In this document: piece by piece, positions 9,463 through 45,042 of the stretch
Position numbering within the stretch: position 1 is the stretch's first letter
Layout of the letters: each line of letters starts with the position of its first letter
Origin: a virus
Virus genome (UHGV): UHGV-1357271
Reading direction: 5' to 3' (one strand)
Length of the DNA: 47,531 nucleotides
The notes under the pieces: model-generated
What the model saw: the letters and a program-made list of their open reading frames with translations, nothing else
Databases searched by the model: none
What the model was told of the DNA's origin: nothing
Made by a program: the position numbers and the translations under genes

Positions 9463-9482
9463 CCTGAATTTGACTGATGTTG

Positions 9483-9531
9483 ATTATATCATCTCAGTGG
9501 TGTTGACACCTGCTAGGTGGTGATGTAGATT
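9483..9531. promoter_or_regulatory. divergent promoter module 1
   Basis: The leftward promoter has an extended -10 TGATATAAT (reverse complement of 9483-9491) upstream of the chaperone/TMP operon. The rightward promoter is TTGACA at 9503-9508, a 17-nt spacer, then TAGATT at 9526-9531 with GGTGATGTAGATT, upstream of the 9567 gene. Confidence 0.5.
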
Positions 9532-9566
9532 CAAGTCATCGAAATGAGATATGAATGAGGTGAGTT

Positions 9567-9860
9567 ATGAAAATTAAAATGTTGATTGCGTCTGCACTAT
9601 TGGTTTCTTCTTTCTCTGCTGTCGCAACATCAGAGGTATGCAAGAACATTGGCGACATCGCATTAAACACGGCTGAAGTTCGCGATAACGGTGTTAGCAA
9701 GAATCTTGCCGAAGTAGTGGTGAAAGGCTCAGCAAAAAACAACGAATCAGCTGAAATAATCGGTCTTGCTATCGTAGAAATGGTTTATGCAAGCAAGGAT
9801 ATGACAAAAGAGCAATTGCGTGATGTGGCTGTTACTTTGTGCGAAAAGCAAGGGATGTAA
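9567..9860 (+). CDS. small secreted protein (signal peptide, AVA/TS cleavage site); moron
   Basis: Strong SD GAGGTGA. N-terminal hydrophobic signal MKIKMLIASALLVSSFSAVATSE. Transcribed opposite to the surrounding tail genes from its own promoter. Confidence 0.6.
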   Translation: MKIKMLIASALLVSSFSAVATSEVCKNIGDIALNTAEVRDNGVSKNLAEVVVKGSAKNNESAEIIGLAIVEMVYASKDMTKEQLRDVAVTLCEKQGM

Positions 9861-9869
9861 GGTTCTGCC

Positions 9870-10013
9870 ATGAACGAACAAACAAAAGCTGACCTGATTT
9901 TCTACACTGAACTGTATGTTGATGCTGGTTACGATTACGAAGAGGCGGAACGCATGGCGAAAGACTTGCTTCGTGTGATTGGTGTGATTTTTGACGAGGA
10001 TAAGGTGATATGA
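9870..10013 (+). CDS. hypothetical acidic protein (47 aa)
   Basis: ATG with an upstream AAGG. Its stop overlaps the next gene's ATG (ATGA). Confidence 0.4.
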   Translation: MNEQTKADLIFYTELYVDAGYDYEEAERMAKDLLRVIGVIFDEDKVI

Positions 10014-10360
10014 AAAATTATGAAGATATGAGCGACTTTGAGATTAACAAGCGAGTGGCGCTAATTGTTGGCGTGACATTTAATGGTGATGGCGCGCCTG
10101 TTAGATTTGTTGAGTGTGATATGGGTTCTTACGCCGACTTTAACGAGATTGAATTTGACCCATGCAATAATGCAGAAGATGCTGAGCCTATTATTATTGA
10201 AAACAGAATTGGCACTATTCCAGCACCAGATGATAGATTGTGGAAAGCTGCGCACAGAAAGATTGGCAATGATGATACGCCATACCATTTTACTCAAGAT
10301 AAAAACCCACTCCGCGCTGCCATGATTGTCTTCCTTAAAATGAATGAGGATAAATTATGA
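10010..10360 (+). CDS. hypothetical protein, likely DUF2591 family (MKNYEDMSDFEINKRVA...)
   Basis: Translationally coupled within the moron operon. The N-terminal motif resembles a family of phage proteins of unknown function. Confidence 0.45.
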   Translation: MKNYEDMSDFEINKRVALIVGVTFNGDGAPVRFVECDMGSYADFNEIEFDPCNNAEDAEPIIIENRIGTIPAPDDRLWKAAHRKIGNDDTPYHFTQDKNPLRAAMIVFLKMNEDKL

Positions 10361-10557
10361 GTCAGTGGATTAAGTGTAGTGAGCGGATGCCTGAAGATGG
10401 AGAGATGGTTCTTACAGCATTTCGTGGTGTCGTTAGAACTGCGGTATGTAAAGTTATCGACAACATTGGCAGTAAGATGTTTGTTAGTGAATTAGACCGC
10501 TGTCACGGAATTCCAGCCACCCATTGGGCTAAATCACCAGAACCACCACAAGAATAA
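10357..10557 (+). CDS. DUF551-like protein
   Basis: MSQWIKCSERMPEDGEMVL...THWAKSPEPP matches the DUF551 pattern. Confidence 0.55.
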   Translation: MSQWIKCSERMPEDGEMVLTAFRGVVRTAVCKVIDNIGSKMFVSELDRCHGIPATHWAKSPEPPQE

Positions 10558-10590
10558 AACAAAGCCCCTTTCGGGGCTTTTTCTTTATCA
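10558..10590. terminator. bidirectional rho-independent terminator
   Basis: The sequence aaagcccctttcggggctttttc lies between the convergent genes ending at 10557 (+) and 10588 (-). Confidence 0.7.
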
Positions 10591-11304
10591 GGAGACGGTA
10601 CAGGCCGTGCTGATAATCATTTCAGGGTCAGTAGATGAATCCGTTACCGTGACGGTATATACACCAGCGGTTGGGCTTGCCAGTGTCGCACCAGACTCAC
10701 CACCAACAACTGCGCCATCTTTGCGCCACACGTAGGTGTAAGGAGCAACACCGCCTTCAACAGCAACAGTTAACGGGCTTCCAGCCGTGCCAGTTGATTG
10801 CAGGTCGGTAGTGAATGCCAGAGGCTCAAGGCTTTCGACGGTAACGCTGTCGGAATCGTAAACCTTGAACTCAAGGCTGCCGGTTACGATGTCGTTAGTG
10901 CCGCCTTCGTAGCTGATGCTGGTGATGTTACAGTACGCGGTAACGATAGTTGCACCAGTTACCTGACGCACCCACAAAGAAGGCTGGCGACGTGCTTTCA
11001 GTTCAGTGGCGTAAATCTCAACCAGTCGGTGAAAGCCAAACTCGTCGCTTGGGTCATTCTTGCGGATTTCAACCTCTGCACTGATGGTCATATCAGAGCT
11101 GGTAACGAGAGTGGAAACAAATCCGCCAGCGGTATCCGCTTCCGACGTGGTGGTCTGCGGCGAGTAGTCAACACCTTTACTGGTGGTTGATCCTAAATAT
11201 TTCCAGGCTTCTGCATCCGGAACTGCGTCACCGCACCCCTCAGCAAGGAACAGTCGGGTCATGCGACCGACCAGAACGCCTTTATCATTTGCACAAATAG
11301 CCAT
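10588..11304 (-). CDS. major tail protein with C-terminal Ig-like domain
   Basis: 238 aa. The C-terminus (PYTYVWRKDGAVV...YTVTVTD) is Ig/Big_2-like, as in lambda V. GGAG SD. Confidence 0.55.
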   Translation of the reverse strand: MAICANDKGVLVGRMTRLFLAEGCGDAVPDAEAWKYLGSTTSKGVDYSPQTTTSEADTAGGFVSTLVTSSDMTISAEVEIRKNDPSDEFGFHRLVEIYATELKARRQPSLWVRQVTGATIVTAYCNITSISYEGGTNDIVTGSLEFKVYDSDSVTVESLEPLAFTTDLQSTGTAGSPLTVAVEGGVAPYTYVWRKDGAVVGGESGATLASPTAGVYTVTVTDSSTDPEMIISTACTVS

Positions 11305-11340
11305 TTCGATCTCCGAATTATGTTAGCTGCTAACGTGGTG

Positions 11341-11384
11341 ATTATATCACAGGTGTTGACAGCGATTATTTTGTGGTGTAGATT
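11341..11384. promoter_or_regulatory. divergent promoter module 2 (paralog of module 1)
   Basis: Leftward extended -10 TGATATAAT (reverse complement of 11341-11349) for the major tail gene. Rightward promoter is TTGACA at 11356-11361, a 17-nt spacer, then TAGATT at 11379-11384 (GTGGTGTAGATT), reading into the tRNA island. Confidence 0.5.
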
Positions 11385-11530
11385 AAAACCTACTTAAGAT
11401 ATGAATTGATTTATGCGTGAGTTTTCAACTTTCTGAAAGGAAGCTGGCCAAAATGAATGAAATCTCAATTTGAAGAAGTAAAAATAATTAGCGGTCGAGA
11501 GACGCCGGACGCGTAACCGGCAACTATCAG

Positions 11531-11616
11531 GAAAGAGCATTTACTGGAGGTATTGGCTGTGGAAATGGCGTAATTCCATACACAGCTAAGATGGTTCAAT
11601 TCCATCAAGTGCTCTT
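11531..11616 (+). ncRNA. tRNA-like minihelix / degenerate tRNA
   Basis: A 13-bp stem (ggaaagagcattt / aagtgctctttcc) encloses a canonical T-arm, gatgg-TTCAATT-ccatc. No acceptable D-arm or anticodon arm could be folded. Confidence 0.25.
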
Positions 11617-12069
11617 TCCGATAGTTTTCGTGAGCGACTTTGCGGACTTTTTATAAACTGACCACAAAGATAAATGCAAACGATGATGTTGTTCTGATGG
11701 CGGCGTAATAGCCTGTAAGTCAGCAAGGTCTTCCGATTCCTTGTAAACAAATTCGGCGCAGTGGCCCGCTGTGATTAATAACGGGCGCACAACAGGTAAG
11801 AGCATTGAGTCGATAATCGTGAAGAGTCGGCGTGCCTGGTTAGCCAGTGCTCTTATCGTTGTGGTAATGCGGCTATGCGCACGCGGCAAGGTAAAGACAC
11901 ACTCCATTTGTTTTACGATTGCCTGCTGGAGTTACCGACCAGCAATCTGGAGGCACCAGAGCCACAACACTTAATATCCAGCATTATCGCAATCATATGT
12001 AGGGGTATGTATGGGTTACGGGGCTGGATATTAAGAAAGCACGCTGGCAATGCTTAAACCAGCACTTAT

Positions 12070-12146
12070 GGACGCGTAGCTTAATTGGTTAAAGCAACCG
12101 ACTCATAATCGGCTGATTGAAGGTTAAAATCCGTCCGTGTCCACCA
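12070..12146 (+). tRNA. tRNA-Met (anticodon CAT) with encoded CCA
   Basis: Manual cloverleaf: acceptor ggacgcg/cgtgtcc, D-stem gctt/aagc, anticodon loop cuCAUaa with U33 and A37, T-arm gaagg-ttaaaat-ccgtc, discriminator A, 3' CCA. Confidence 0.7.
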
Positions 12147-12148
12147 AA

Positions 12149-12176
12149 TTAAAAGCCGCCAAGTGCGGCTTTATTT
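12149..12176. terminator. bidirectional terminator
   Basis: The sequence aaaagccgccaagtgcggctttattt follows the tRNA and lies after the convergent minus gene ending at 12175. Confidence 0.6.
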
Positions 12177-12549
12177 ATTTCACAACCCGCAAAAGCAACT
12201 CATGCACAGGCCGTTTCTCTTCCGTTAACATTGGCCTACCGAGTGGCGCTTGCAACTGGATGTAGTTAACGCATGAATCAATAGGATGAGTTTTGATATA
12301 TTCGATAATCTCCAACGCCTTAGCATCAACATCAGCAACGTTGTACTGGCCTTGTTTCCCGACAACGTACAGCGAGAAATAGAAGTCACCGCCGAGGCCA
12401 TCCATAACCTGTGTGCCGCCGTTGGATTGCAGGACAATAAATTGCTCGTTGCCATCTCCGGTGTCATTCCAGAACTGCAACTGCGAGGTCCAGCCATCAT
12501 ATAATCCGGCATCCTGAAGATATGCATCAACCAGCTCAAGCATATTCAC
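12175..12549 (-). CDS. head-tail joining / tail terminator-like protein (124 aa)
   Basis: Member of a block of four overlapping small ORFs between the major tail gene region and the structural-block promoter. Confidence 0.35.
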   Translation of the reverse strand: MNMLELVDAYLQDAGLYDGWTSQLQFWNDTGDGNEQFIVLQSNGGTQVMDGLGGDFYFSLYVVGKQGQYNVADVDAKALEIIEYIKTHPIDSCVNYIQLQAPLGRPMLTEEKRPVHELLLRVVK

Positions 12550-12944
12550 AGTTTCATCTCCTTCTTAATCACGCTATCAACAAGGTCTTTCGTTCGTTGC
12601 GCAGCTTTGGTCAGGAATTGCGGCTCACCTCCCGGACTCCAATACGTGCCGTTACCATTACTGCGCGGTTTACCTGTAAGTTTCCCACTGGCGTTATGGA
12701 CATACAGCGCATATTTTGCAGAGTAGCCAACTTTACCAGTGATTCGCGTTCCGCTGACTTCCACAGTATCAAACTGACTGTTAATCAGTGTCGATGTGTC
12801 AATCGGCGTTAGCGTGGCTGATTCGGTGCGAATGATGTATGTTGCTGACTTCAGCGCGTGCACCGCTTTCGTGGTGATTATCTCATCCACAATCTGCGAT
12901 GTTCTCTCTACAGCCTGACGGATACCTCTTAATTTCGCTGGCAT
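12546..12944 (-). CDS. HK97 gp10-like head-tail joining protein (132 aa)
   Basis: Size and composition fit; translationally coupled to its neighbours. Confidence 0.35.
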   Translation of the reverse strand: MPAKLRGIRQAVERTSQIVDEIITTKAVHALKSATYIIRTESATLTPIDTSTLINSQFDTVEVSGTRITGKVGYSAKYALYVHNASGKLTGKPRSNGNGTYWSPGGEPQFLTKAAQRTKDLVDSVIKKEMKL

Positions 12945-13291
12945 TATGTCACCAGTGCAAAGTCAGGCGGCTCATCTCGATTGAACGTATTGCCGTAGTT
13001 AATCACATTCAGAATCTGGTTTGCGCCGGCTGCCAGTGGGTCAGACTCTGTTACCGTGCCAATCATGATGTAATCGCCAACATTAGCACCAGTGTATTCT
13101 GTCCAGAAAGTATTCTTCTGCACAATCTCATTACCTTTCGCATCGGTCGATACATCATCGTTAAAGCCATAATCGCACATGATGCTTACTGGCGCGTCAA
13201 AAGTCGGCTTTCCGTACTTGTCAGTGCCGCTTTTGTGCCAGATTGTGCATGGCTGCGTATAGGAAAACCGAACCAACGAAGTCATTTGCAC
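12944..13291 (-). CDS. head-tail adaptor/completion protein (115 aa)
   Basis: Coupled small structural ORF. Confidence 0.3.
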   Translation of the reverse strand: MQMTSLVRFSYTQPCTIWHKSGTDKYGKPTFDAPVSIMCDYGFNDDVSTDAKGNEIVQKNTFWTEYTGANVGDYIMIGTVTESDPLAAGANQILNVINYGNTFNRDEPPDFALVT

Positions 13292-13710
13292 TTACTCCCA
13301 CGCACAACCGCAAACCACGGTTTGCCGCTTCCATCAGGGTCTTCCACTAAATCTCCAGTGCATCCGGCTGTATCCAGTAGCTTCATCTGATTGTACAGCG
13401 CCACCCACGGCTTACTGCCATATGCGAATGATTGTGATGCGCCAGATGGTGAGCTTTGACTGGTAACGTAGCGACCTGCAGTATTTGCGCTAATCAGGAT
13501 GGAAGCCCACAGCATGATCGCATTTTGTCGGCATTCATCATTCGGATAGTTCAGCTCAAGGCATTCACTGATTGATGCCACAAGACACAGAATACCGGAT
13601 GCATCCGTTGTGGTAATAGTCATTCCACGGGATGCCATTTGGCTTACTAATTCTTCAGGTGTTGGTGCTGCCATTTTTCTTAGACTCCCGGACTTTCCAC
13701 CACATTTCAA
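13282..13710 (-). CDS. head-tail connector protein (142 aa; alternative start MAAPTPEEL at 13674)
   Basis: Coupled structural ORF. Confidence 0.3.
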   Translation of the reverse strand: MKCGGKSGSLRKMAAPTPEELVSQMASRGMTITTTDASGILCLVASISECLELNYPNDECRQNAIMLWASILISANTAGRYVTSQSSPSGASQSFAYGSKPWVALYNQMKLLDTAGCTGDLVEDPDGSGKPWFAVVRGSKCK

Positions 13711-13939
13711 ATAGGTTCTTTATTACCAGAGACAGAGCGCCGAGGATTGACGCTACCGCCGCCCATTCTGTCAGGCTGTGTGGAATCATAGCCTCAAAAT
13801 AAGATTGCGTGACAGGTGTTTGCTCCGCAACTTTCAGGCCGATACCAGTGCCAATAGAAGCGTATCCAGCCTTGTCAATCACCTGCCCTGCCGTTCCGCT
13901 TATAATCTGCTCTGCGGCCTGCCTTAGTGCTCCGTTCAT
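13655..13939 (-). CDS. hypothetical protein with one hydrophobic segment (94 aa)
   Basis: ORF lying between the membrane protein and the connector genes. It overlaps both. Confidence 0.25.
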   Translation of the reverse strand: MNGALRQAAEQIISGTAGQVIDKAGYASIGTGIGLKVAEQTPVTQSYFEAMIPHSLTEWAAVASILGALSLVIKNLFEMWWKVRESKKNGSTNT

Positions 13940-13971
13940 TGTGCGTCTCGCTGATGATATGTTTCCAGCAC

Positions 13972-14412
13972 TTATAGATTTGAATCAGCGAAAAAACAAT
14001 GGCGACCACGCCAAGAATAATGTCCAATTTCGCCGCCCCATTTAAAAGTGATGGAAAGGATGAACAGATGGATGCCGATAATAATAAATGCGTACTGTGC
14101 ATGAAGCGGCGTTTCTACAGGCGTGATAAATTCCCATACGAATGACTCTATCGCAACCAGCCATTCGTAAAGGCTCATCGTCAGCACGCAGAGCGCCATC
14201 TTTGTACTTTTGCGCAGCGCAATAGCCGGAAACAACCAGACCATAGACTGCGCAAGGTAATACAGATATTCGGCGGGAAATGAATCAACAAGCACCCATC
14301 CAAGATACACAGACATCACCATTGCCGGAATGAACACCAGAAACGCGACCATTCCTGTGCAGGCAAAGCCCAGCACATACATGATCATGATGGCAATGTC
14401 TGCGCCGAACAT
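13972..14412 (-). CDS. polytopic inner-membrane protein (146 aa, ~4 TM)
   Basis: Very hydrophobic. Start overlaps the upstream stop in a TAATG arrangement. Confidence 0.5.
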   Translation of the reverse strand: MFGADIAIMIMYVLGFACTGMVAFLVFIPAMVMSVYLGWVLVDSFPAEYLYYLAQSMVWLFPAIALRKSTKMALCVLTMSLYEWLVAIESFVWEFITPVETPLHAQYAFIIIGIHLFILSITFKWGGEIGHYSWRGRHCFFADSNL

Positions 14413-14531
14413 TATTTTTTACCGCGCGATGGTGAGCGGGTGGAACCGTTTGGCTTCACTGCGCCGGTTTTGCCGCCGGTTTTGGTGTTGCCAGTAGCGC
14501 GTGAGCGAGACGGACCGTTTGTGGAACCCAT
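14412..14531 (-). CDS. small highly basic Gly/Ser/Thr/Lys-rich protein (39 aa)
   Basis: AGGAG SD at ideal spacing. Sequence MGSTNGPSRSRATGNTKTGGKTGAVKPNGSTRSPSRGKK. Not in the ORF track because it is shorter than 60 aa. Confidence 0.45.
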   Translation of the reverse strand: MGSTNGPSRSRATGNTKTGGKTGAVKPNGSTRSPSRGKK

Positions 14532-14555
14532 GTTTAAATCTCCTGTTGTTTGATT

Positions 14556-14607
14556 AGCATGATTTTAGCATATTCCTGTTGACGTAGATTGGCGGTGCGT
14601 TTATAGT
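14556..14607. promoter_or_regulatory. divergent promoters
   Basis: Leftward extended -10 TGCTAAAAT (reverse complement of 14556-14564). Rightward promoter is TTGACG at 14579-14584, a 17-nt spacer, then TATAGT at 14602-14607, with GTAGATT immediately after the -35. Confidence 0.45.
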
Positions 14608-14648
14608 TATTGATGTAGGAACAACAATAAATGTTAGAGGTGATAAAA

Positions 14649-15272
14649 ATGAGTAGCAACGAAAAACATTATGATTATTACATGGTTGAAGGTGATGATG
14701 TTAAGAAAGTTATTAACGCATATGATGACATTCAAAAGCGCCGCAATGAAATTCTCGGTGATGCCATGAAAAAGGTTGGCGCTATCGCTTTCACCACGAC
14801 ACGTAGCTGGGGCGCTGTCGGTGGTGGCTTACTTGAGAGCTTTGCTTGGAGTAAGCAGTTTGAGTTTCCGAGCCAAGTGACGATAAAGCGTGAAGACTTT
14901 TGGGAAGGTCAGCGTGTAATCGTTGCTCGCGGGAAGGGAAACACAAAGGACGGGCGAGAATATAATAAAAAACTTGACGCTGTGATTCGCGAAGCAAACG
15001 AGCAATTAAAGTCATTGCCAGAATGGAAAGACTACATTGTTAATCATTACGGCATTGCGCGCACAGGCATTGGCGAGCAATCGGGTCGCGGATTTGGTTT
15101 TGCAATGCTGTCTACTTATGGCGGTAAGCACCCGCAAAAGGATGATTGCCTGATTTTTGCTGTGCCAAATACAAAAGATGAAGGTCACGGACAGGTAACG
15201 ATACCTGATAATTTTACGCAGATAACCTACGGTCAGTTTTACGATATTGCTAATTCTGGTGATGAGGAGTAA
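14649..15272 (+). CDS. hypothetical protein (207 aa)
   Basis: GAGGTGA SD before the ATG at 14649. The track's 14631 start lacks an RBS. Confidence 0.5.
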   Translation: MSSNEKHYDYYMVEGDDVKKVINAYDDIQKRRNEILGDAMKKVGAIAFTTTRSWGAVGGGLLESFAWSKQFEFPSQVTIKREDFWEGQRVIVARGKGNTKDGREYNKKLDAVIREANEQLKSLPEWKDYIVNHYGIARTGIGEQSGRGFGFAMLSTYGGKHPQKDDCLIFAVPNTKDEGHGQVTIPDNFTQITYGQFYDIANSGDEE

Positions 15273-15274
15273 TC

Positions 15275-15466
15275 ATGGCAAACATGTCCTACTGTCGATT
15301 TCGTAATACAGAGCAAGACTTCAATGATTGTGTTGATGCAATTGGCAACATTGAGTCTATTGATGACTTAAGCAATGCAGAACGCAAGTCTGCTGAGCGC
15401 CTGTACCATCTGGCTAATGAGTACGTCGCATATTACGAGCAATTGTTAGAGGAAAGTGGTGAATGA
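15275..15466 (+). CDS. hypothetical protein (63 aa)
   Basis: Coupled ORF. Confidence 0.4.
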   Translation: MANMSYCRFRNTEQDFNDCVDAIGNIESIDDLSNAERKSAERLYHLANEYVAYYEQLLEESGE

Positions 15467-15467
15467 T

Positions 15468-15749
15468 ATGAAAGATGAATTCAAAGGTACAAAAGGTCCG
15501 TGGTTTTGGGATGAGGAAGGTCTGGGGAATAAACATCACATAGTATTCGGAAAGGGGTATCCGATTGAGGTGACAAGCAAAGAAAATAAGTCTCTTATTG
15601 CCGCGGCACCAGAGTTACTTGAAGCTCTTCGCCAGCTTCGCGATTATGTTGAGGATGTTTGCGCAGTATCGTCGGATGATTACCATGAGGAACATCCATT
15701 AAATCTGGCAAACAAAGCAATCAAGAAAGCATTAGGAAAGAAACAATGA
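15468..15749 (+). CDS. hypothetical protein, paralog of 27622..27918
   Basis: Shares K-G-x-W, LIAAAPELLEAL and KAIKKALG motifs with the second copy. Confidence 0.5.
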   Translation: MKDEFKGTKGPWFWDEEGLGNKHHIVFGKGYPIEVTSKENKSLIAAAPELLEALRQLRDYVEDVCAVSSDDYHEEHPLNLANKAIKKALGKKQ

Positions 15750-16555
15750 AAACACTCAGCAAAATCTATTCAGACAAAGAAACCCGAAACGGAATCGCTG
15801 TTAACAAAACCTATCTCGTGCCAGTGGAGCAAATCTATCTTGAGCCGGGATACAACATCCGCGAAGCAGATGAGCAACACGTTGAGTATTTCGCGCAGTG
15901 CTGGGAATCAGGTCAGCCATTACCAGCATTAACAATTATTCCTGACGAGAAGGGAATACGAATTCTTGATGGTCAGCATCGCTATCTCGGCGCATTGCGT
16001 GCCATTGAGCGTGGCGCACCAATCGTTCGCATTGAGTGTAAGGATTTCACTGGCGACGAGGCGGACAAAATCGCCTTCATGGTGTCATCAAGTCAGGGTA
16101 AGCAGCTTGACCCGTTTGAGCGAGCAAAGGCTTATACGCGACTGAAAGGCTTTGGCTGGACGAATGAAGAAATCGCCAAAAAGGTAGGTCGCTCAGTATC
16201 TGACGTGCAGATGCACCTGTCATTAGGCGACGTGCCAGCAGAAGTGAAAGCACGCATTAGTGCCGGCCAAATCAGCTATGCAAATGCTGTAGCGGTAACT
16301 CGTGAGCATGGCGATGATGCGGTTAAAGTTATCGATGAAGCTGTAGAAGAAGCGAAGGCGCAAGGCAAGGATAAGGTCACGGCGAAGGTGCTTAAGTCGA
16401 AAAAGATTAAGCCAGTAGACCGCCTGATTGAGTTATTGAAGCCAGCAGACCACGTTATTCTTCCTGCTGGTCATGAACTGAAGGAGGATGAGGAGTTTAT
16501 CCAGATTCCTGTTGCTGACATTCACGAGGTGATGGCAATTCTGGAGAAGATGTGA
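15746..16555 (+). CDS. ParB-like nuclease (ParB/Srx N-terminal) domain protein
   Basis: ILDGQHRYLGALRA matches the ParBc core. Plus a predicted HTH region. Confidence 0.55.
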   Translation: MKTLSKIYSDKETRNGIAVNKTYLVPVEQIYLEPGYNIREADEQHVEYFAQCWESGQPLPALTIIPDEKGIRILDGQHRYLGALRAIERGAPIVRIECKDFTGDEADKIAFMVSSSQGKQLDPFERAKAYTRLKGFGWTNEEIAKKVGRSVSDVQMHLSLGDVPAEVKARISAGQISYANAVAVTREHGDDAVKVIDEAVEEAKAQGKDKVTAKVLKSKKIKPVDRLIELLKPADHVILPAGHELKEDEEFIQIPVADIHEVMAILEKM

Positions 16556-16779
16556 TGAAACCACAAGAAGCAACACTCGCCATCAAAGATATTCTTTCTC
16601 AATGCAATTCAGATGATGATTTCAGGGTTGCTATGTATTGCATTATTGAATTTATGCTCATATCTGACCTTAGCATTAAAGACGTTATTTCATGCATTGA
16701 GAATGCCAGTGGTGATTATGTTGAATCAGATAGATGCATAGATGACATGATTGCTGAACTGAAGGATAACTATCTATGA
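16552..16779 (+). CDS. hypothetical acidic protein (75 aa)
   Basis: Coupled ORF. Confidence 0.4.
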   Translation: MMKPQEATLAIKDILSQCNSDDDFRVAMYCIIEFMLISDLSIKDVISCIENASGDYVESDRCIDDMIAELKDNYL

Positions 16780-16949
16780 CACCAGAACAATTTATCGAAA
16801 AACAGCTTCGTACCAAGCTGCCTGACATCGACCAGATGGCAATTGATACGGCAATTCAGTATTACAAGCGCAATCAGAGCGCAAAGAAGGGTGGTATTTT
16901 TGAAGAATGCCTGAAGGTTGCAAAACAACACATGATTAAGGTGAAGTGA
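16776..16949 (+). CDS. hypothetical protein (57 aa)
   Basis: ATGA overlap at both ends. Sequence MTPEQFIEKQLRTKLPD... Confidence 0.4.
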   Translation: MTPEQFIEKQLRTKLPDIDQMAIDTAIQYYKRNQSAKKGGIFEECLKVAKQHMIKVK

Positions 16950-17485
16950 TGAAACTAAAAATCAGCAAATTATTACTTGAATCAGCATTAATCTTTCAGG
17001 CGCGCAATGATGTGCGATATTACCTGAACGGAATCTGCTTTATGCCTGATGGTCGTATTGCGTCAACTGACGGTCATCGCGCATTCATTGGTGGAAGCCA
17101 TGATAACAAGCTTACAGAAAATGTGATTATCAAGATTGGTAAATCTGCAACAAAACGCTATGAGTATGCCATCATTGATACTAAGTCTAAAATTGCAACG
17201 TATCATGATGAAGCTGGCGTTATGGTTGGCGCTGGTATCTGCGAAGAGATTGATGGTCGATTCCCTGATATTGATCGCGTAATACCAAAGGAAACGAAAG
17301 CAGCAGATGAGATTGGCTTTAATGCTGGCTACCTTGTTGATATCGGGAAAGTGGCGAAGCTGTTTAACCCTAAATTCCGCGGCGTCAAAATTGAACTGAA
17401 TGGAAACACAAATGCCGCAGCTTGCTGTCTTAGTGCGCCATCTGGCGAGACTGCGAAGATTGTTGTTATGCCGGTGCGTCTGTAG
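16949..17485 (+). CDS. hypothetical protein (178 aa)
   Basis: Coupled ORF followed by a strong terminator. Confidence 0.45.
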   Translation: MKLKISKLLLESALIFQARNDVRYYLNGICFMPDGRIASTDGHRAFIGGSHDNKLTENVIIKIGKSATKRYEYAIIDTKSKIATYHDEAGVMVGAGICEEIDGRFPDIDRVIPKETKAADEIGFNAGYLVDIGKVAKLFNPKFRGVKIELNGNTNAAACCLSAPSGETAKIVVMPVRL

Positions 17486-17489
17486 TGAT

Positions 17490-17518
17490 AAAAAGCCCCT
17501 CTGGGGCTTTTCTTTTAT
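17490..17518. terminator. bidirectional terminator
   Basis: The sequence aaaagcccctctggggcttttctttt lies between convergent genes. Confidence 0.7.
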
Positions 17519-18348
17519 CACGCCAGATAAGTATCATCCTCAAACCACGAGACATACGCATTGATATTCTGCACCGCAGTATCAAGTGATGTTATGCGAA
17601 GCAGATATGCCGTATTTGGTGCCATGATTATTTGCTCACCTAATATAGCTTGCGAGTTACCCTGACCCTGATTAGATGCGTTACCCTCGCTGTACGTTGC
17701 CGCAACAGTCAGCTGCCCGATATTTGTAATCGTAGCACCAGTAAGTAACTGCGCCGTGGCTGCCTGCGGCGAGATGTCATTTGGGTTATTAACCTCCGCA
17801 GCGGTGCCGCCAGTGGCTACAGCTCCACGGTAGATTGACGCTACGACACCCTTACCGGTGTAGCCGATGATGCGTTGATTAAAAACGACCTGTTTTGAGC
17901 CGGTAATAAAAATACTGTCAAGGTTAGCTCCGCCAGCAACGTCAGTCACGCGACGCGATGCGGTGAATAACTTCCCTTGCTTGTTAGCAAACCCTGCATA
18001 GGACTGCGCGACAACCTGACTTGATGGTACTGATGTGGCAGATCGCCATACCAGGACTTTCAGGGATGCAATGCCCGCTGGTATTTGTGACTTAATCACC
18101 TTCAGTCGCAGCGCTACGCCATAATAATTATTATTGTTAACGTCAATCCAGAAATCACCGGATGAAAACGGCGATACCATTACAGAAACAGACCCGCCTG
18201 TTAATGGCTCATAGCCACCGGAAGAATTTAGCGGCACAATCTGCACCTGTAATGCTGACCAGTCCGCAGACATGGTTTCGCTAAGCAAAACCTCTCCATC
18301 AGCCGGAGTTGTGTTTATTTCGTATCTGACAGCCATAGAAACCCCCAA
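17518..18348 (-). CDS. putative virion structural protein (276 aa, beta-rich, A/G/S/T/N-rich)
   Basis: Downstream of the capsid genes. Isolated from them by a strong terminator. Confidence 0.35.
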   Translation of the reverse strand: MGVSMAVRYEINTTPADGEVLLSETMSADWSALQVQIVPLNSSGGYEPLTGGSVSVMVSPFSSGDFWIDVNNNNYYGVALRLKVIKSQIPAGIASLKVLVWRSATSVPSSQVVAQSYAGFANKQGKLFTASRRVTDVAGGANLDSIFITGSKQVVFNQRIIGYTGKGVVASIYRGAVATGGTAAEVNNPNDISPQAATAQLLTGATITNIGQLTVAATYSEGNASNQGQGNSQAILGEQIIMAPNTAYLLRITSLDTAVQNINAYVSWFEDDTYLA

Positions 18349-18376
18349 TAAAAAACCCGCATTATGCGGGTTCAGT
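18349..18376 (-). terminator. rho-independent terminator
   Basis: On the minus strand: acccgcataatgcgggt followed by tttttatt. Confidence 0.65.
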
Positions 18377-18574
18377 TTACTCTGCTTTCTTTCTCTTTGT
18401 CGTCTTTTCTTGTGGGGTTGCGACTTCGAAAGACTTTTCGAGTTCTGGCATGATGCGCAGTTTTGGTAGCAGATGATCGGCTGGTTCGGTAATCACCTCG
18501 CCAAGCTGCAATTCACGAATCTTGCCTTTCTCTTTTACAAAGATTCCGCGTGCGATAACTTCGTACTTAGCCAT
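18377..18574 (-). CDS. hypothetical protein (65 aa)
   Basis: GAGGTGA SD. Lies between the MCP attenuator hairpin and the terminator. Confidence 0.4.
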   Translation of the reverse strand: MAKYEVIARGIFVKEKGKIRELQLGEVITEPADHLLPKLRIMPELEKSFEVATPQEKTTKRKKAE

Positions 18575-18585
18575 TATTCACCTCA

Positions 18586-18612
18586 AATTCACAAAGGGGC
18601 TTTCGCCCCTTT
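18586..18612 (-). terminator. hairpin/attenuator immediately downstream of the MCP
   Basis: On the minus strand: aaggggcgaaagcccctt followed by tgtgaatttg. Confidence 0.45.
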
Positions 18613-18615
18613 CTA

Positions 18616-19686
18616 TTACAGCGGAGTTTGTGTGCCGTAGCCGTTAAACACTTTTGACTTGCCAGTGAAATCCTTACGGATTTGCAAACCAAAAGCTGAC
18701 CACACCATAAAGTTAAAGTTATCGTGCGGATTGTCACGGGCTGCTGCGTAGGTGGAAACAGGCTGAGCAACACGCGGACGGATGTACATGTCGTTGCGAA
18801 CGTAGCCAACGAAATGGTTGCCGGTCAGCAGGAAGTTGGTGCCAATCTTGCCGATACGGCCATTGCCGAACTGCGTGATGTACTGCTCAACCGTGCCGCC
18901 TTTGAAGCCTGCAGCATCAGAATACGGACGCATGAAGCTGCGACGCACTGCCGGGGAAACCCACAGAGTCACCTGCTCAAATACGTTCTGCGCATCCAGA
19001 ATAGCCTGTAAATCCTGATTGAAGAAGGTCACGATTTCGTCTGGCGTTGCTGTTTGCAGGTCGATATTCAGACCGCCGGAAGCATTCAGGTTAACCTGAA
19101 CAGTGTTCGGGTGGTTGGTGATGCCGTAACCAGTGTAAACGCCGTTTACGTTCAGAGTCTGGTCGCCGGTAAGCAGATACTGCGCCATGTCGGAACGCAG
19201 GTTAAAGGTGACGTTAGCCTGATCGTCCAGCAGTGGGTCAAAACCTTCAGACTGCATACCCAGCAGTTCGCGCCATTCGCGGCTGTAGCCAGTCTTGAAG
19301 ATCGGAATCACATCGCCAGTGTAATCGTAGCGGGTTTTATCCAAATCTTCCGGTTCCTGACCAGACAGGGTGCGGGCGACCTTACCAGCATCGGAAGCAA
19401 TGCGACTGATCGCCACGGTCTTACCGATGTTGATGTTTGCCGCGATACCCATCAGGTCAGCCATCATGTCCTGACCTGCTTCGTTGCGGAAAACGCGGGT
19501 GGTGACGTTGTCCACGTCGCGCCAGTAATCCTTCGTTACCAGTGCGGTAGCGTTCACACCGTAAGTTTTCGCCAGTTCAGCTTCTGCATTGCAGAACACT
19601 TTACGGTCGATGGTCAGATGTTTCCACTGGTCAGCCACCACTGCGGAGTTAGCTACCAGGTCTTTGGTAAAAATAATCTTTTCCAT
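18616..19686 (-). CDS. major capsid protein (HK97-fold), 356 aa
   Basis: Size, and position downstream of the decoration and protease/scaffold genes. Followed by an attenuator hairpin. Confidence 0.6.
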   Translation of the reverse strand: MEKIIFTKDLVANSAVVADQWKHLTIDRKVFCNAEAELAKTYGVNATALVTKDYWRDVDNVTTRVFRNEAGQDMMADLMGIAANINIGKTVAISRIASDAGKVARTLSGQEPEDLDKTRYDYTGDVIPIFKTGYSREWRELLGMQSEGFDPLLDDQANVTFNLRSDMAQYLLTGDQTLNVNGVYTGYGITNHPNTVQVNLNASGGLNIDLQTATPDEIVTFFNQDLQAILDAQNVFEQVTLWVSPAVRRSFMRPYSDAAGFKGGTVEQYITQFGNGRIGKIGTNFLLTGNHFVGYVRNDMYIRPRVAQPVSTYAAARDNPHDNFNFMVWSAFGLQIRKDFTGKSKVFNGYGTQTPL

Positions 19687-19688
19687 TA

Positions 19689-21568
<1,880 letters not shown>

Positions 21569-37817: not shown

Positions 37818-37846
37818 AATCTACATCAATGATGATTCTACGTCAA
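37818..37846 (-). promoter_or_regulatory. leftward promoter TTGACG-N17-TAGATT with two GTAGA(A/T)T motifs
   Basis: Minus strand reads ttgacgtagaatcatcattgatgtagatt. Confidence 0.5.
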
Positions 37847-37919
37847 CATGATTTTCAGTTGTCACATTAGTGGGTTCTGGTGAAACAGGGCCAGTTGCGC
37901 GATTATTAATCACACCACA

Positions 37920-38270
37920 AAAACCCGGTAAATGCAGGTTTCCCAAATAAAGTACCGGTAATCAATAACTTAGAAGAGCAATCAAGGATTGAAAACTGCT
38001 GTATTTACCTACAGGTGGTAAAAATGAATCCAGTAATGACGCGGTCTGCGGAGGAGTTACCGGTTTTACCCGGTAAATTATATAGAGGTAAGTAAGTTAT
38101 TCATTCATATTAATATATTGATTTTATTAGATTTCTTTAATATTAGACCAATTAATACACTACAACTCTTAATGATGAAAATACTCCTTAAGAAATCCGG
38201 TAAAACCGGTAAAACGTTATTAATCAATTTGTTACATTAAAAAACCACAGGTAAAAACCAGGTAAAGACG
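37920..38270. repeat. putative replication origin: CCGGTAAA(A) iteron array flanking an AT-rich DNA-unwinding element
   Basis: At least 8 copies of the (A/C)CGGTAAA core (37924, 37954, 38069, 38196, 38205; inverted at 38059; variants CAGGTAAA at 38249 and 38260). A ~60-bp stretch of more than 80% AT lies at 38100-38160. Non-coding region between divergent operons, close to the primase and helicase genes. Confidence 0.5.
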
Positions 38271-38437
38271 GTATAAGTCGAGCAAAAATTCATCAAACTA
38301 TACAGTCAACACACATTATAGGTGATGGACTGGTCATACCTGCTGATTGGTTTGGTGACTGCTCATGTTCTGATGTGTTTTTATTGCATATCTTTTTTAT
38401 TTATATAAAATTAGAGTAACTGGATATGGAGGTAAGT

Positions 38438-41945: not shown

Positions 41946-42017
41946 AAAATCTTCCTGTTGACGTTGATGTAGAATCATTGTAATTTACTCACATGAAACA
42001 ATCAATCGTTACTTGCA
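41946..42017. promoter_or_regulatory. divergent promoters between the primase and HNH/helicase operons
   Basis: Rightward promoter TTGACG at 41958-41963, 17-nt spacer containing GATGTAGAATCAT, then TAATTT. Leftward promoter TTGATT-N17-TACAAT on the minus strand. Confidence 0.45.
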
Positions 42018-42052
42018 ATGAAACAATTAATCGTTACAATAGAGGGTAAGAA

Positions 42053-42202
42053 ATGGCTATCACCGTCAAGAAATGCGAGGTTTGCGGAAATGAGTTCATC
42101 GGAACTGCAAAAGCAAAATGTTGCTCAGGAAAGTGTAGATTGCGCAAGCACAGACAGAAGAAAAACCCAATTCATAACTCAAAAACAGATAATGGAATAT
42201 CT
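42053..42202 (+). CDS. small Zn-ribbon protein (49 aa)
   Basis: AGAGGG SD. Sequence MAITVKKCEVCGNEF...CCSGKC. In a different frame from the downstream HNH gene. Confidence 0.4.
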
Positions 42203-42665
42203 TGAATATAACCCTGAGACTGGTGTCTTTACAGCTGCAAAAACACATGGAACACTCTGGCGTAAAGGCAAGGTTGTTGGTCATAAGAATAAGGCAGGTT
42301 ACATTACCATCACGCTACTAGGAAAACTAAGGAAAGCTCATAGGCTGGCATGGATTTATGTTTATGGAGGAGATATTGATGGGTATGAAATAGACCATAT
42401 AAATGGTGATAAATCAGACAATAGAATTTGCAACCTTAGGATTTCTAGTCACCAGCAAAACATGTTCAACATGAAAAAGAAATCAACAAACAAATCTGGT
42501 GTAAAAGGTGTGCATTTTGATAAAAGATGCAACAAATGGAGAGCGCAGACATCAATAAACAAGAAGAGGGTTCATCTTGGTTTGTTTGACACCATAGAAT
42601 CAGCAGAAAAGGCGATTCGTGAATTCATGGTTGCTAACCATAAAGAGTTTATTAATTTAGGGTAA
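42192..42665 (+). CDS. HNH homing endonuclease with AP2 DNA-binding domain
   Basis: YEIDHINGDKSDNRICNLRISSHQQN (HNH motif). SGVKGVHFDKRCNKWRAQ (AP2 domain). Start taken at MEYLEYNPETG. Confidence 0.6.
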   Translation: MEYLEYNPETGVFTAAKTHGTLWRKGKVVGHKNKAGYITITLLGKLRKAHRLAWIYVYGGDIDGYEIDHINGDKSDNRICNLRISSHQQNMFNMKKKSTNKSGVKGVHFDKRCNKWRAQTSINKKRVHLGLFDTIESAEKAIREFMVANHKEFINLG

Positions 42666-42668
42666 GTT

Positions 42669-44591
42669 ATGCATAAAATAGACAAAATGATTTCAGAGAT
42701 TGATATTGATATGCTGAAATCTTATCTGGATACTGGTGATATCGAGCCAAGACCATATCAGTGGTTGATATATAAGTTAACTGGTGATGTGATTCGCCAT
42801 TATGTTGGCCCTAGTTATGTGACAGCAAGCGTCGGTAGCGGAAAGTCACTGATGATTGCCATGATAGCAAAGCGTTTTCAGGAAATGGGATATTCAGGGA
42901 TGATTCTATCAAGACAGGGCGAAATAGTGGAGCAAGATGCGGAAGAGCTATGGTCCCTTGGTGTTAGAAACTCGCTATTCAGTGCTTCGTTGGGTAGGAA
43001 AAGTTCCACGTACCCAATAATCTGTGGTTCTGAGGGCACTGTTATAAATGCTTTGTTTGATAAAAAGGATGAGTCAGGGAATGTTATTGCAAAAGGTGCG
43101 CTCTCTGACTTTTGCCCAAGATTCCTGCTTATCGATGAAAATCATATGGTTAATGACATTGATGTTGTTAATGATGGCGATACGCAGTATGCAGTGATAA
43201 TTAATGAGCTAATGAAAAGATGCAAAGATAAGCACGGCCATGAGTTGAGAATAATAGGCTATACAGGCTCACCGTTTCGCGGAACTACATCAATAAAAGG
43301 CGCTTTCTGGAAGAAAGAGATTATCAACATAGACACCAAGTACATGGTTGAAAACGGTTTTCTTGTGCCAACAATTTTTGGTCTTCATGATGTTGATAGC
43401 CTGCATTACGACCTTTCAGATTTTCATGGTTCAGATATTGATGGTACTCAGGACTTTACCGCCGAGCAGCTAAAGCAGATGCAGAAAGAAATTCTTGAGC
43501 AAGGTACGTTGACGCAGAAAATCATGCTTAAGGTTATGGAGTTGACTAAAAACAGGAACGGTGTGCTGATTACATGTGCTGGTAAAAAGCATTGCCAGGA
43601 GGCGGCAAAATATTTGCCTGAAGGAAGTTACTCAATAGTTACAGAAGATATGGGGTCAAAAGCCAGAAGGAAGGCTCTAAAAGATGCATACACAGGGCGC
43701 AAAAAATTCACATTCCAGATAGCAGCCCTTACCACTGGCGTAAATATACCGTTATGGGACACGAGCTGCATATTAAGAAAAATAATGTCGCTCACCCTTC
43801 TTGTTCAGTTGCTTGGTCGAGGAATGCGCCTGCTGAAGAAAGAGCAAATTGATGCCGGGTATCATAAAGAAGACCATCTTGTTCTTGATTTTTCAGGCAC
43901 GATGTTTGAGCTTGGTCAGCTGTATGAAGACCCAATTCTGGAAGAAGCCGAGGTGCAACGCTCAAAACGCAGTGGAGAACAGGTTCCGTGCCCGAAATGC
44001 GGAACAATGAACAGTCCATATGCGCGTCGCTGCATTGGCAAAGATGCACTATCGCCAGATGGTCGATGCGAGGAGTTTTTCAGCTACATCCGTTGCGGTT
44101 TCGATAAGCATGGCATCCGTATTTTTGATGATGGTTGCGGCACTAAAAACGACCCAACCGCGCGTTATTGCCGCCATTGTGATCATGTTTTGCGCGACCC
44201 TAATGCGGCATTGAATGAGCGTGCGTATACGGATAACGAATGGGCTGATGTTATGGATTTCAATGTTCAGTTAACGAAGGATGGAGAGGGAGTTTTATAT
44301 CGCTACTGGATTAATCGTTGTGACGGCAAGGAAGGATGGGCTAATGAGGTTTTCTATCCATACGGTGGCGCAACTCACATGAAAAACATGTTTAAGGCAA
44401 AGGCCATCTTCCCTCACCTTGATGATAAGTCAATGGCAGGGAAAATCCTGAAATGCCAGAACGCCAAACAATTCATGATGTATGCAGGATTGATTAAAGC
44501 TCCAAAGCGCATCACGCATCGCATCAACGATAAAGGCCGCGACATAATCCACAGAAAAGATTTTACAGGAGAGCAAAGTGAAGCAGCTTGA
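42669..44591 (+). CDS. SF2 DNA helicase with C-terminal Zn-ribbon
   Basis: GSGKS Walker A. DENH motif II. CPKCG...CRHCDH ribbon. 640 aa. Confidence 0.75.
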   Translation: MHKIDKMISEIDIDMLKSYLDTGDIEPRPYQWLIYKLTGDVIRHYVGPSYVTASVGSGKSLMIAMIAKRFQEMGYSGMILSRQGEIVEQDAEELWSLGVRNSLFSASLGRKSSTYPIICGSEGTVINALFDKKDESGNVIAKGALSDFCPRFLLIDENHMVNDIDVVNDGDTQYAVIINELMKRCKDKHGHELRIIGYTGSPFRGTTSIKGAFWKKEIINIDTKYMVENGFLVPTIFGLHDVDSLHYDLSDFHGSDIDGTQDFTAEQLKQMQKEILEQGTLTQKIMLKVMELTKNRNGVLITCAGKKHCQEAAKYLPEGSYSIVTEDMGSKARRKALKDAYTGRKKFTFQIAALTTGVNIPLWDTSCILRKIMSLTLLVQLLGRGMRLLKKEQIDAGYHKEDHLVLDFSGTMFELGQLYEDPILEEAEVQRSKRSGEQVPCPKCGTMNSPYARRCIGKDALSPDGRCEEFFSYIRCGFDKHGIRIFDDGCGTKNDPTARYCRHCDHVLRDPNAALNERAYTDNEWADVMDFNVQLTKDGEGVLYRYWINRCDGKEGWANEVFYPYGGATHMKNMFKAKAIFPHLDDKSMAGKILKCQNAKQFMMYAGLIKAPKRITHRINDKGRDIIHRKDFTGEQSEAA

Positions 44592-44655
44592 TAGCGGTAT
44601 ATGGGTATTTGATAGCGGTTATCGTGGAGAGTGTAATTCAGAGGAAACGGAACAG

Positions 44656-45003
44656 ATGACTTATGGGTTGTGGATGGATTATCACTTCCCTGACGTTATA
44701 TGGTTTCATGTTCCAAATGAAACCGGGACAAAAAGCGGCGCGCAGTTCGTTATAAAGAGAAAAAAAATGGGTGTAAAAAGTGGCGTGAGCGACGTGATTA
44801 TACTAAGCAATGGTGTAGCTCATTCTTGCGCAGTAATTGAGCTTAAGAAAGAAGATAGAACAAAATCTCAGATATCAAAAGACCAACGTAAATTTCTTGA
44901 TAGAGCGCATAGAGAGGGAAAGTTCGCAGCTATCGCGTACGGTGCTGAACAACTAAAAAAAGCCACACTTTTCTATTTTGGCTTGCCTTTTGATTTGGGT
45001 TGA
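44656..45003 (+). CDS. VRR-NUC domain nuclease
   Basis: HVPNE...GVSDVIIL...IELKKEDRTKSQISKDQRKFLD motifs. GAGGA SD. The track's longer version starts at a GTG inside the helicase 3' end. Confidence 0.6.
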   Translation: MTYGLWMDYHFPDVIWFHVPNETGTKSGAQFVIKRKKMGVKSGVSDVIILSNGVAHSCAVIELKKEDRTKSQISKDQRKFLDRAHREGKFAAIAYGAEQLKKATLFYFGLPFDLG

Positions 45004-45011
45004 TGTAGATT
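44983..45011 (+). promoter_or_regulatory. promoter TTGCCT-N17-TAGATT (GTTGATGTAGATTC)
   Basis: Upstream of the 45043 gene. Followed by the conserved AGTGAGGTGATGAAGATG leader. Confidence 0.4.
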
Positions 45012-45042
45012 CATTTACACAATGACAAGTGAGGTGATGAAG

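Follow-up and report, generated by a model that had tools for sequence, protein, structure and literature searches.

The 47,531-nucleotide virus genome sequence UHGV-1357271 (the whole stretch analysed, called the window in what follows) carries an asymmetric motif of 11-12 bp, (T)TGAYGTAGAWT, which has no dyad and is embedded in about eleven sigma70-type promoters that head early and accessory gene units. Our preferred reading, to which we assign a probability of about 0.5, is that the motif would be promoter and operator in one (a composite promoter-operator), with a phage-encoded factor, most likely a repressor, as its reader. The sigma70 holoenzyme of the host would most likely fire the motif promoters unaided early in infection, and the same motif would also be the binding site of a sequence-specific, most probably phage-encoded factor that acts on all of these promoters jointly. 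The most likely action of that factor would be repression by occlusion, turning the early units off.

An initial annotation of the window had proposed an operator-like motif recurring through its divergent promoter regions, a proposal that depended on an excess of the motif in intergenic DNA. Every site that it listed carries the motif, and the excess is clear. In an unbiased k-mer comparison GTAGAT ranks first among hexamers for intergenic enrichment (13 intergenic and 5 coding occurrences, Fisher p=1.6e-9), and the lists for 7-mers and 8-mers are headed by extensions of it. Allowing up to one mismatch, TGAYGTAGATT occurs 18 times in the window for 1.56 expected, a count reached by 0 of 100 shuffles; the shorter GTAGAWT is found 17 times for 9.3 expected. 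Exact copies of TGAYGTAGAWW number 11, with 10 of them intergenic (binomial p=2.4e-9), and have a gene start in the same direction 36-125 nt downstream. Some copies had been placed on the minus strand, which is right for 37818-37846, while those at 41965 and 45001 both lie on the plus strand.

The window is a near-complete siphophage genome. Its nucleotide identity is about 88-90% to Shigella phage DS8 and Escherichia phage C1, both members of the genus Deseoctovirus, and to numerous phages of Salmonella and Escherichia. The window phage, about 90% identical to C1, is Deseoctovirus-like and not T1-like as had been supposed. A more distant second clade has Klebsiella and Aeromonas as hosts and includes vB_KpnS_MK54 (MK54 below), whose capsid protein is about 79% identical. 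Our own gene map and the C1 annotation agree on an alternation of strand blocks. The leftward, minus-strand blocks hold the tail, connector, capsid, lysis, portal and terminase genes; the rightward blocks and some leftward ones hold accessory genes, genes for small proteins without known function, and those for replication and recombination. Intergenic DNA makes up 11% of the genome.

The motif sites of the window are the following.

9503-9531, plus strand: P9525, with TTGACA at 9503-9508, a 17-nt spacer and TAGATT at 9526-9531; the motif TGATGTAGATT (9521-9531) supplies the -10 hexamer, and the unit consists of accessory genes (9567-10557) closed by a terminator at 10561-10580.

11356-11384, plus strand: P11378, TTGACA-N17-TAGATT, with the motif TGGTGTAGATT at 11374-11384; it has no adjacent open reading frame, and the variable slot behind it ends in tRNA-Met (12070-12146, plus strand) and a terminator (12152-12172).

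14579-14621, plus strand: P14584, in which TTGACGTAGATT (14579-14590) is a -35 hexamer fused to the motif TGACGTAGATT (14580-14590), with the -10 TATAGT at 14602-14607; a second, degenerate copy TGATGTAGGAA at 14611-14621 reads TGACGTAGAAA in most relatives and is a conserved direct copy. The unit (14649-17485) includes the ParB/KorB-like gene discussed below.

24066-24118, both strands: central divergent control region, in which GTAGAATCATTCTAC (24066-24080) provides one copy per strand, followed by TTGACT (24091-24096), the motif TGACGTAGATT (24100-24110) and GTCAATA (24112-24118). On the plus strand 24066-24080 belongs to TGGTAGAAT; on the minus strand it gives GTAGAAT 39 nt ahead of gene 23844-24041. 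The region heads a rightward unit (24145-25757) and a leftward unit from 24041.

27254-27292, plus strand: P27259, with TTGACGTAGATT at 27254-27265 (motif TGACGTAGATT, 27255-27265) and the -10 CATAGT/TAGTAT at 27277-27284; an inverted copy TGATGTAGATA lies on the minus strand at 27282-27292, and the unit is 27309-28916.

32276-32314, minus strand: P32314, with TTGACC at 32314-32309, N17 and TAGTAT at 32291-32286; two copies are inverted relative to transcription, plus-strand TGGTGTAGATA at 32276-32286 (after the -10) and CGGTGTAGATT at 32298-32308 (after the -35). The unit starts at 32255 and extends leftward as far as the small genes that precede portal.

32353-32381, plus strand: P32375, tandem motif units 17 bp apart, TTGACGTAGATA at 32353-32364 being the -35 and TGATGTAGATT at 32371-32381 the -10; the unit is 32409-33655. 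With P32314 this makes four motif copies in 32276-32381.

37818-37846, minus strand: P37824, tandem motif units 17 bp apart, TTGACGTAGAAT at 37846-37835 and TGATGTAGATT at 37828-37818, heading a unit of leftward small genes from 37787.

41958-41986, plus strand: P41969, with TTGACG at 41958-41963, N17 and TAATTT at 41981-41986 as the probable -10; the motif TGATGTAGAAT (41965-41975) lies in the spacer, and the site heads the rightward replication and recombination unit from 42018.

44983-45011, plus strand: P45005, with TTGCCT at 44983-44988, N17 and TAGATT; the motif is TGATGTAGATT at 45001-45011, and this is an internal promoter ahead of 45037-47324 (exonuclease VIII, Erf-like, SSB).

The 5' half of the motif unit, TTGAYG, resembles a -35 hexamer and its 3' half, TAGATT, a -10 hexamer, and the sites use these halves in four registers. 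In the first the motif is the -10, with TAGATT exactly 17 nt after TTGACA, TTGACG or TTGCCT (P9525, P11378, P45005). In the second it is the -35, with TTGACG fused to TAGATT and followed 17 nt on by TATAGT or CATAGT/TAGTAT (P14584, P27259). The third register combines both, two units 17 bp apart forming a complete promoter (P32375, and P37824 on the minus strand). In the fourth the motif lies within the spacer, as in P24104 of the central region (TTGACT-aag-TGACGTAGATT-c-GTCAATA) and P41969 (TTGACG-t-TGATGTAGAAT…TAATTT). Extra copies stand downstream of some -10 hexamers, direct at P14584 and inverted at P27259; P32314 holds two inverted copies. All motif copies fall inside the DNA stretch that RNA polymerase covers.

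These geometries agree with the initial annotation: counted back from the G of GTAGAT, TTGAC begins at a distance of either 5 or 22 nt, the longer distance giving the exact 17-nt spacer to TAGATT. Over the fetched relatives, counted as distinct contexts, the offsets from TTGAC to GTAGAT are discrete: -5 (n=143), -22 (n=112), -23 (n=24), -13/-14 (n=47) and -11 (n=8). The spacer to the -10 is accordingly 17 nt in 112 distinct contexts and 18 nt in 24. At every site the -35 hexamer is near TTGACA (TTGACA, TTGACG, TTGACC, TTGACT or TTGCCT), and the -10 hexamers, which have A at position 2 and T at position 6, are TAGATT, TATAGT, TAGTAT or TAATTT. The motif is not itself an extended -10 element, the TG dinucleotides of TGAYGTAGATT lying at -17/-16 and -14/-13, not at -15/-14.

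A generic sigma70 scan places motif promoters at four of its five best sites in 9000-29000 and also finds those at 32353, 37846 and 32314. The assertion that the motif is no generic sigma70 consensus was therefore overstated, since these are very good TTGACA/G-N17-TAGATT promoters, four of the five best in 20 kb. Strong, mostly bidirectional terminators stand at unit ends (10561, 12152, 17491, 25762, 28922, 33642 and 40967), and each rightward unit is closed by a strong terminator. The assignment of the motif sites as predicted sigma70 promoters for early units has good support from the sequence.

For comparison with relatives we used 126 IMG/VR loci anchored on the capsid and primase genes, together with the complete C1 and MK54 genomes. 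Orthologous intergenic regions were placed by their flanking genes (whole-segment, ungapped) and not by the motif, and were then reduced to distinct sequences. The resulting orthology-anchored sets contain 15-41 distinct sequences from two clades, counts that overstate independence in that the close-clade sequences are interrelated.

For each window site there is an orthologous motif copy in the Klebsiella phage MK54. The sigma70 hexamers and the remainder of the motif unit are at least 90% conserved, and neighbouring spacer positions 40-60%. At P14584, 24 of 27 sequences have TAGATT immediately behind the -35, and the 6 nt after it come in 17 variants; at P27259 the figures are 25 of 26 for TAGATT and 8 variants for the six spacer bases that follow. 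Where the motif serves as the -10, nearly all sequences have TGRYG in the five positions before the hexamer. Of 147 distinct sequences, 132 have TAGATT as the hexamer itself, 5 have TAGAAT, and 1 has TATATT, a step toward consensus. P11378 keeps the -10 TAGATT in 36 of 36 distinct orthologs; for P37824 conservation was assessed in 41 distinct sequences. At P9525 the spacer is wholly different in three lineages, TTGACA and TGAYGTAGATT are kept, and the cargo differs between clades. At P11378 more than 10 variants lose homology precisely where GTAGATT ends on its 3' side. In the central region the layout TTGACTA-N-TGAYGTAGATT-N-GTCAA is kept in both clades. Among 26 distinct sequences of the close clade, the inverted copy at P27259 shows conservation of at least 90%; in the Klebsiella clade a direct copy takes its place. 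The cargo behind P9525, P11378, P14584, P27259 and P32375 differs between genomes. The motif is promoter-embedded, lineage-specific and present in two clades, and its conservation in related genomes, which the initial annotation had suggested as a check, supports its holding information beyond the sigma70 hexamers.

Outside the lineage, a scan of IMG/VR for the tandem arrangement TTGACGTAGAT-N5-8-TGAYGTAGAT found none in promoter context; the matches there are coding Asp-Val-Asp repeats.

Features that are not conserved are the palindrome at 24066-24080, the orientation of the downstream copy at P27259 and any fixed spacing between copies. Direct copies are 17, 22 or 29 bp apart in the window and 10 or 24-25 bp apart in relatives, not the constant two helical turns that had been described. 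Perfect palindromes had also been reported; the one at 24066-24080 exists in the window, and in the other, GACGTAGAT...ATCTACATC, the arms differ at one base. The palindromes around the motif are incidental. We rejected the 24066-24080 palindrome as a dimer operator for its lack of conservation in relatives, and the window holds no recurrent palindrome usable as a classical parS or OB site.

A second promoter class contrasts with the first and often stands back to back with it, as the initial annotation had noted in distinguishing divergent early and late classes.

4609-4617, 9483-9491, 11341-11349, 14562-14570, 21600-21608, 27236-27244 and 31306-31314, minus strand: extended -10 elements, TGnTAnAAT.

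9483-9491, minus strand: TGATATAAT, an extended -10 element that lacks a -35, precedes the tail operon by 38 nt and is conserved in MK54.

These seven intergenic elements, all on the minus strand, have neither a recognisable -35 nor a motif of their own. The genes that they precede, by 34-95 nt, are those for tail, major tail, connector, capsid, lysis and portal. The leftward elements that had been pointed out, TGATATAAT, TGCTAAAAT and TGATAGAAT, are present. Judged by gene content, the motif promoters would be early or accessory and the extended -10 promoters late. Four of the seven are back to back with a motif promoter, the upstream halves overlapping, and three late promoters have no motif nearby. 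The motif had been thought to overlap the -35 position of the leftward promoters; it does so only at 14570 and 27244, the overlap at 9491 and 11349 being with the TTGACA hexamer instead. Between clades the distance from the extended -10 to the neighbouring TTGAC varies by 0-11 bp. Given this variation and the three motif-free late promoters, direct fixed-geometry activation of late promoters by the motif is unlikely. The interpretation in the initial annotation, a dedicated regulator or a phage promoter class, is partly supported.

Two of the late promoters have local peculiarities. The extended -10 TGCTATAAT (31314-31306, minus strand) overlaps the stem of a terminator-like hairpin at 31308-31287, and the upstream early unit may end where the portal promoter starts. 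At 9475-9485 (plus strand) a one-mismatch copy of the motif, TGATGTTGATT, shares bases with the -10 of the tail promoter, which points leftward and reads TGATATAAT on the opposite strand; MK54 has TGACGTAATTA here; this copy may be a weak operator on a late promoter or a chance product of ATT/ATTATA. Late promoters free of a -35 would fit a factor that blocks -35 recognition in the manner of AsiA, and no such protein was found in the scans described below.

We propose an additional reader of the motif because conservation extends to two stretches that sigma70 is not known to contact specifically (-29 to -24 and -17 to -13), because the -10 is fixed in a non-consensus form, because the unit occurs in four registers, and because conserved inverted copies are unable to serve the promoter that hosts them. 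That position and orientation vary within the promoter core fits an operator better than a core promoter element. Since all copies lie within polymerase-covered DNA, a bound protein would occlude the promoter in any register or orientation, which fits a repressor. Shut-off of an early promoter would also free the overlapping extended -10 promoter at the four back-to-back pairs; as early and late promoters overlap at these places, repression of the one would relieve competition with the other, and an early-to-late switch by this route would be possible. The start sites, the timing, the existence and identity of a trans-acting factor and the sign of its effect are predictions from the DNA sequence.

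Several observations weigh against a composite promoter-operator. The unit is asymmetric and without dyad, and its copies are irregularly spaced (10, 17, 22, 24-25 or 28-29 bp, direct or inverted), unlike classical dimeric operators. The two dominant registers are those in which the halves act as -35 and -10, such that promoter function alone could explain much of the pattern. The comparison across clades amounts to about two lineages. Avoidance of the motif in coding DNA, which we had considered as a further property, was rejected as not robust: against a codon-shuffled null GTAGAT is rarer than expected in coding DNA of the window (5 for 14.5 expected) and of C1 (7 for 16.0), and TAGATT and TTGACR, unlike it, are not depleted, but MK54 has 16 for 14.6 expected. 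None of the roughly 40 early proteins that we scanned could be identified as the cognate regulator. Phages with ParB-like homologs of 44-48% identity (Kp4856-1, ECO1230-10) do not have the motif, and are too divergent to inform. ParB/KorB proteins, moreover, normally read palindromes such as the OB operator TTTAGCGGCTAAA (PMC11790492), and none recurs in the window.

The protein scans used Pfam, PHROG and NCBIfam on these early proteins, many of them small and without annotation. Three have recognisable DNA-binding domains, and no further DNA-binding, sigma, MotA or AsiA domain was found among the approximately 40.

15746-16555, plus strand: ParB/KorB-family protein; HTH_ParB, 44 bits (cutoff 22.6), and KorB, 25.7 bits (cutoff 22.3).

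22869-23357: MarR-like winged helix-turn-helix (wHTH) protein, phrog_1687.

42018-42665, plus strand: HNH-AP2 protein, which by eye from the P41969 alignments seems present in only some genomes.

As the factor that may read the motif, the ParB/KorB-family protein is weakly favoured. It matches Spo0J (1vz0, E=8e-13) and KorB (8qa8, E=0.003), and a Sigma70_r4_2 match inside its helix-turn-helix (HTH) is sub-threshold. It has DGQHRYLGA in place of the GERRxR arginine-rich patch with which ParB binds cytidine triphosphate (CTP). Between clades the protein is 80% identical and its HTH is identical, while the wHTH protein, which the initial annotation had named as a candidate, is 35-37% identical with a different putative recognition helix. 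The two clades have one and the same motif, which suits the ParB-like protein better and makes the wHTH protein a disfavoured candidate. The small conserved proteins encoded first behind motif promoters, gp24145 and gp32049, are also possible candidates: the former is basic and helical, and the latter (32049-32255) is HTH-like by eye. An AlphaFold2 model of gp24145, made without an alignment, has a predicted local distance difference test (pLDDT) score of 59.5, too low for use.

Two further observations concern the ParB/KorB-family protein. It weakly matches a DGQHR (DndB-like) domain model and may belong to a DndB/DGQHR branch rather than being a partition protein. There is also only one other repeated intergenic motif family, (C/A)CGGTAAA(A) (CCGGTAAA repeats), which could be its target instead. 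At least nine copies lie at 37900-38290, in a gap of 650 nt that separates the helicase operon from the unit of leftward small genes (for example at 37925, 37955, 38057-38078, 38197-38215 and 38250-38275), flanking an AT-rich block at 38088-38190; this region resembles a replication origin with iterons.

One specific form of repression would be global silencing of the KorB kind in a strictly lytic siphophage, with an early protein of the ParB/DGQHR family reading the asymmetric 11-mer at the -35, spacer or -10 of every early promoter, silencing all of them and thereby freeing the overlapping extended -10 late promoters. We regard this version as unlikely. If it were true, the 11-mer would be a minimal promoter building block, of which two copies 17 bp apart give a full sigma70 promoter, and new accessory cassettes would gain expression and regulation in one step.

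The serious rival to an operator is that the motif is a promoter flavour acting in cis only, the lineage's optimal sigma70 early consensus, used by host polymerase alone with no dedicated regulator. The extra conserved bases would then tune kinetics or be kept alike by recombination between promoter copies (concerted evolution), and the downstream direct copies would be -10-like, sigma70-dependent pause elements. There are familiar precedents, T4 and T5 among them, for an early-promoter consensus peculiar to a phage. The dominant registers put the halves at -35 and -10 with an exact 17-nt spacer, the sites top the generic sigma70 scan, and the missing cognate regulator, dyad symmetry and fixed spacing between copies are all as this explanation would have them. 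A pause element of this kind is a -10-like sequence on the non-template strand in the first ~25 transcribed bases. The direct copy TGACGTAGAAA downstream of the P14584 -10 sits at such a position, yet the equivalent copies at P27259 and P32314 are inverted and unusable by that mechanism. Sigma70 has no known base contacts at -29 to -24 or -17 to -13, yet these positions are conserved across clades beside variable spacer. Copies in spacers (P24104, P41969) and inverted copies (P27259, P32314) cannot be the -35 or -10 of their promoter, and the non-consensus G of TAGATT almost never shifts toward TATAAT (1 of 147). With these points on both sides we hold cis-only action to be possible but doubtful.

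Activation rather than repression, with the motif promoters as a phage-specific class, would follow from a phage factor that redirects polymerase, either a MotA-like activator with an anti-sigma or a phage sigma-like protein. The unit of the fused class spans -35 to -24 with its centre near -30, where T4 has its MotA box. Two of the leftward late promoters, 14570 and 27244, have an inverted unit with its centre at about -30/-31, and an AsiA-type factor would exploit the contrast between -35-dependent and extended -10 promoters. An activator that contacts polymerase needs fixed geometry, however, and the register of the motif varies over four positions and both orientations, which makes it unlikely. 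A good -35 is present and not replaced, three late promoters have no nearby motif, and the scanned proteins contain no MotA, AsiA or sigma domain other than the sub-threshold Sigma70_r4_2 match in the ParB HTH. We consider this alternative distinctly improbable.

We give still less credence to a host factor, in which case a protein conserved in Enterobacteriaceae would bind the motif and the phage would turn it to use at early promoters. An identical motif in phages of Escherichia, Salmonella, Shigella and Klebsiella, with no phage regulator found, would suit that idea; the tandem pattern, on the other hand, was not found in IMG/VR viral contigs outside the lineage, and to our knowledge the 11-mer matches no E. 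coli transcription-factor consensus. It is likewise very improbable that the promoter units are mainly recombination junctions, short homology blocks for the exchange of accessory cassettes: the cargo behind five promoters varies, the P11378 homology ends at the 3' end of GTAGATT and the units are bounded by promoter and terminator, but the same cargo is almost never found behind another motif promoter (a few matches of about 80% over some 90-130 nt), and selection on the promoter but not on the cargo beside it would account for the breakpoints just as well.

That a lineage should have a promoter or operator motif of its own is no surprise, and the mechanism is one that we infer. What is unusual is an asymmetric unit whose halves double as -35 and -10, which is used in several registers and is conserved across two clades. 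In the literature we found nothing on promoters or transcription of this phage group, and searches with the motif sequence matched primers only. The group is large and much isolated from Escherichia, Salmonella, Shigella and Klebsiella, with about 200 genomes, several members used in biocontrol and others in the BASEL collection. The analysis gives it a testable transcription map, which consists of about eleven early or accessory promoters that share a control element, seven late promoters of the extended -10 type, and cassettes bounded by terminators. Should the operator be real, one protein-DNA pair would control the early-to-late switch and could be exploited to engineer or attenuate these phages, and an asymmetric, register-flexible site would be an unusual operator design. 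If the motif is only a promoter flavour, it would provide a strong, compact and portable promoter set, with conserved spacer bases that sigma70 is not known to read.

The cargo of the motif-headed units is varied and takes in replication and recombination genes, the ParB-like/RusA unit, small genes of unknown function, membrane proteins and a tRNA slot. In motif-promoter units there are a Lar-like restriction alleviation protein (23347-23592, minus strand; Pfam, 37 bits) and a match to an anti-restriction PHROG (16555-16779, plus strand), which would fit an early role of these units in host takeover. The first gene after P32375 (32409-32873, plus strand) matches Pfam Vut_1, a putative vitamin uptake transporter family, and is a membrane accessory gene; other genomes differ here. 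In relatives the P11378 slot (11385-12172) holds sequences resembling other tRNA genes, or unrelated cargo. The protein at 42018-42665 (plus strand) has HNH_3 and AP2 domains, is of the homing-endonuclease type and is encoded between primase and the DEAD-box helicase; the cargo after P41969 varies among relatives, which suggests a mobile insertion.

Among known systems, the sigma70 early promoters of T4 and T5, which have a phage-specific consensus, are close in having a TTGACA/G -35, a 17-nt spacer, a -10 with T-12, A-11 and T-7, and many near-identical copies. They differ from the motif promoters in that the latter have a fixed non-consensus TAGATT -10 and conserved bases outside the hexamers, and have an 11-12-mer that recurs in either orientation at the -35, within the spacer, at the -10 or beyond it. 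T4 middle promoters combine a MotA box at -30 with a sigma70 -10 and are used with AsiA, to which extended -10 promoters are resistant. The fused class likewise has a phage-specific box near -30, and the contrast between -35-dependent and extended -10 promoters is shared; here, however, the -35 is kept, the position of the box is variable and neither MotA nor AsiA has a homolog among the approximately 40 scanned proteins.

In phi29, protein p4 represses the early promoters A2b and A2c and activates the late promoter A3, which lacks a -35, binding inverted repeats at a fixed position upstream of A3. The window resembles phi29 in its back-to-back pairs of -35-dependent early and -35-less late promoters that overlap upstream. 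Unlike in phi29, the distance from motif to late promoter varies over 0-11 bp, three late promoters are motif-free, and extended -10 promoters should need no activator. The promoter-early stem-loop (PeSL) cassettes of T4-like phages are similar in that conserved promoter units flank hypervariable accessory cargo; exchange of cargo from slot to slot is rare in our phages, limited to the few short matches given above, and the motif has no stem-loop. An operator of the lambda type, a dyad of about 17 bp with two-fold symmetry and fixed spacing, differs from a motif that has no dyad and whose copies are 10-29 bp apart, direct or inverted.

The KorB/KorA regulon of plasmid RK2 has a ParB-family repressor whose operators are dispersed over many promoters, the operator OB being a 13-bp palindrome (PMC11790492). 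The motif unit differs from OB and parS in being asymmetric with no recurrent palindrome, and in the window protein, whose binding to the motif is a prediction, DGQHRYLGA stands where the GERRxR patch would be. Common to both systems are one short element placed in many promoters and an encoded HTH protein of the ParB/KorB family, whose gene in the window lies within a motif-bearing unit.

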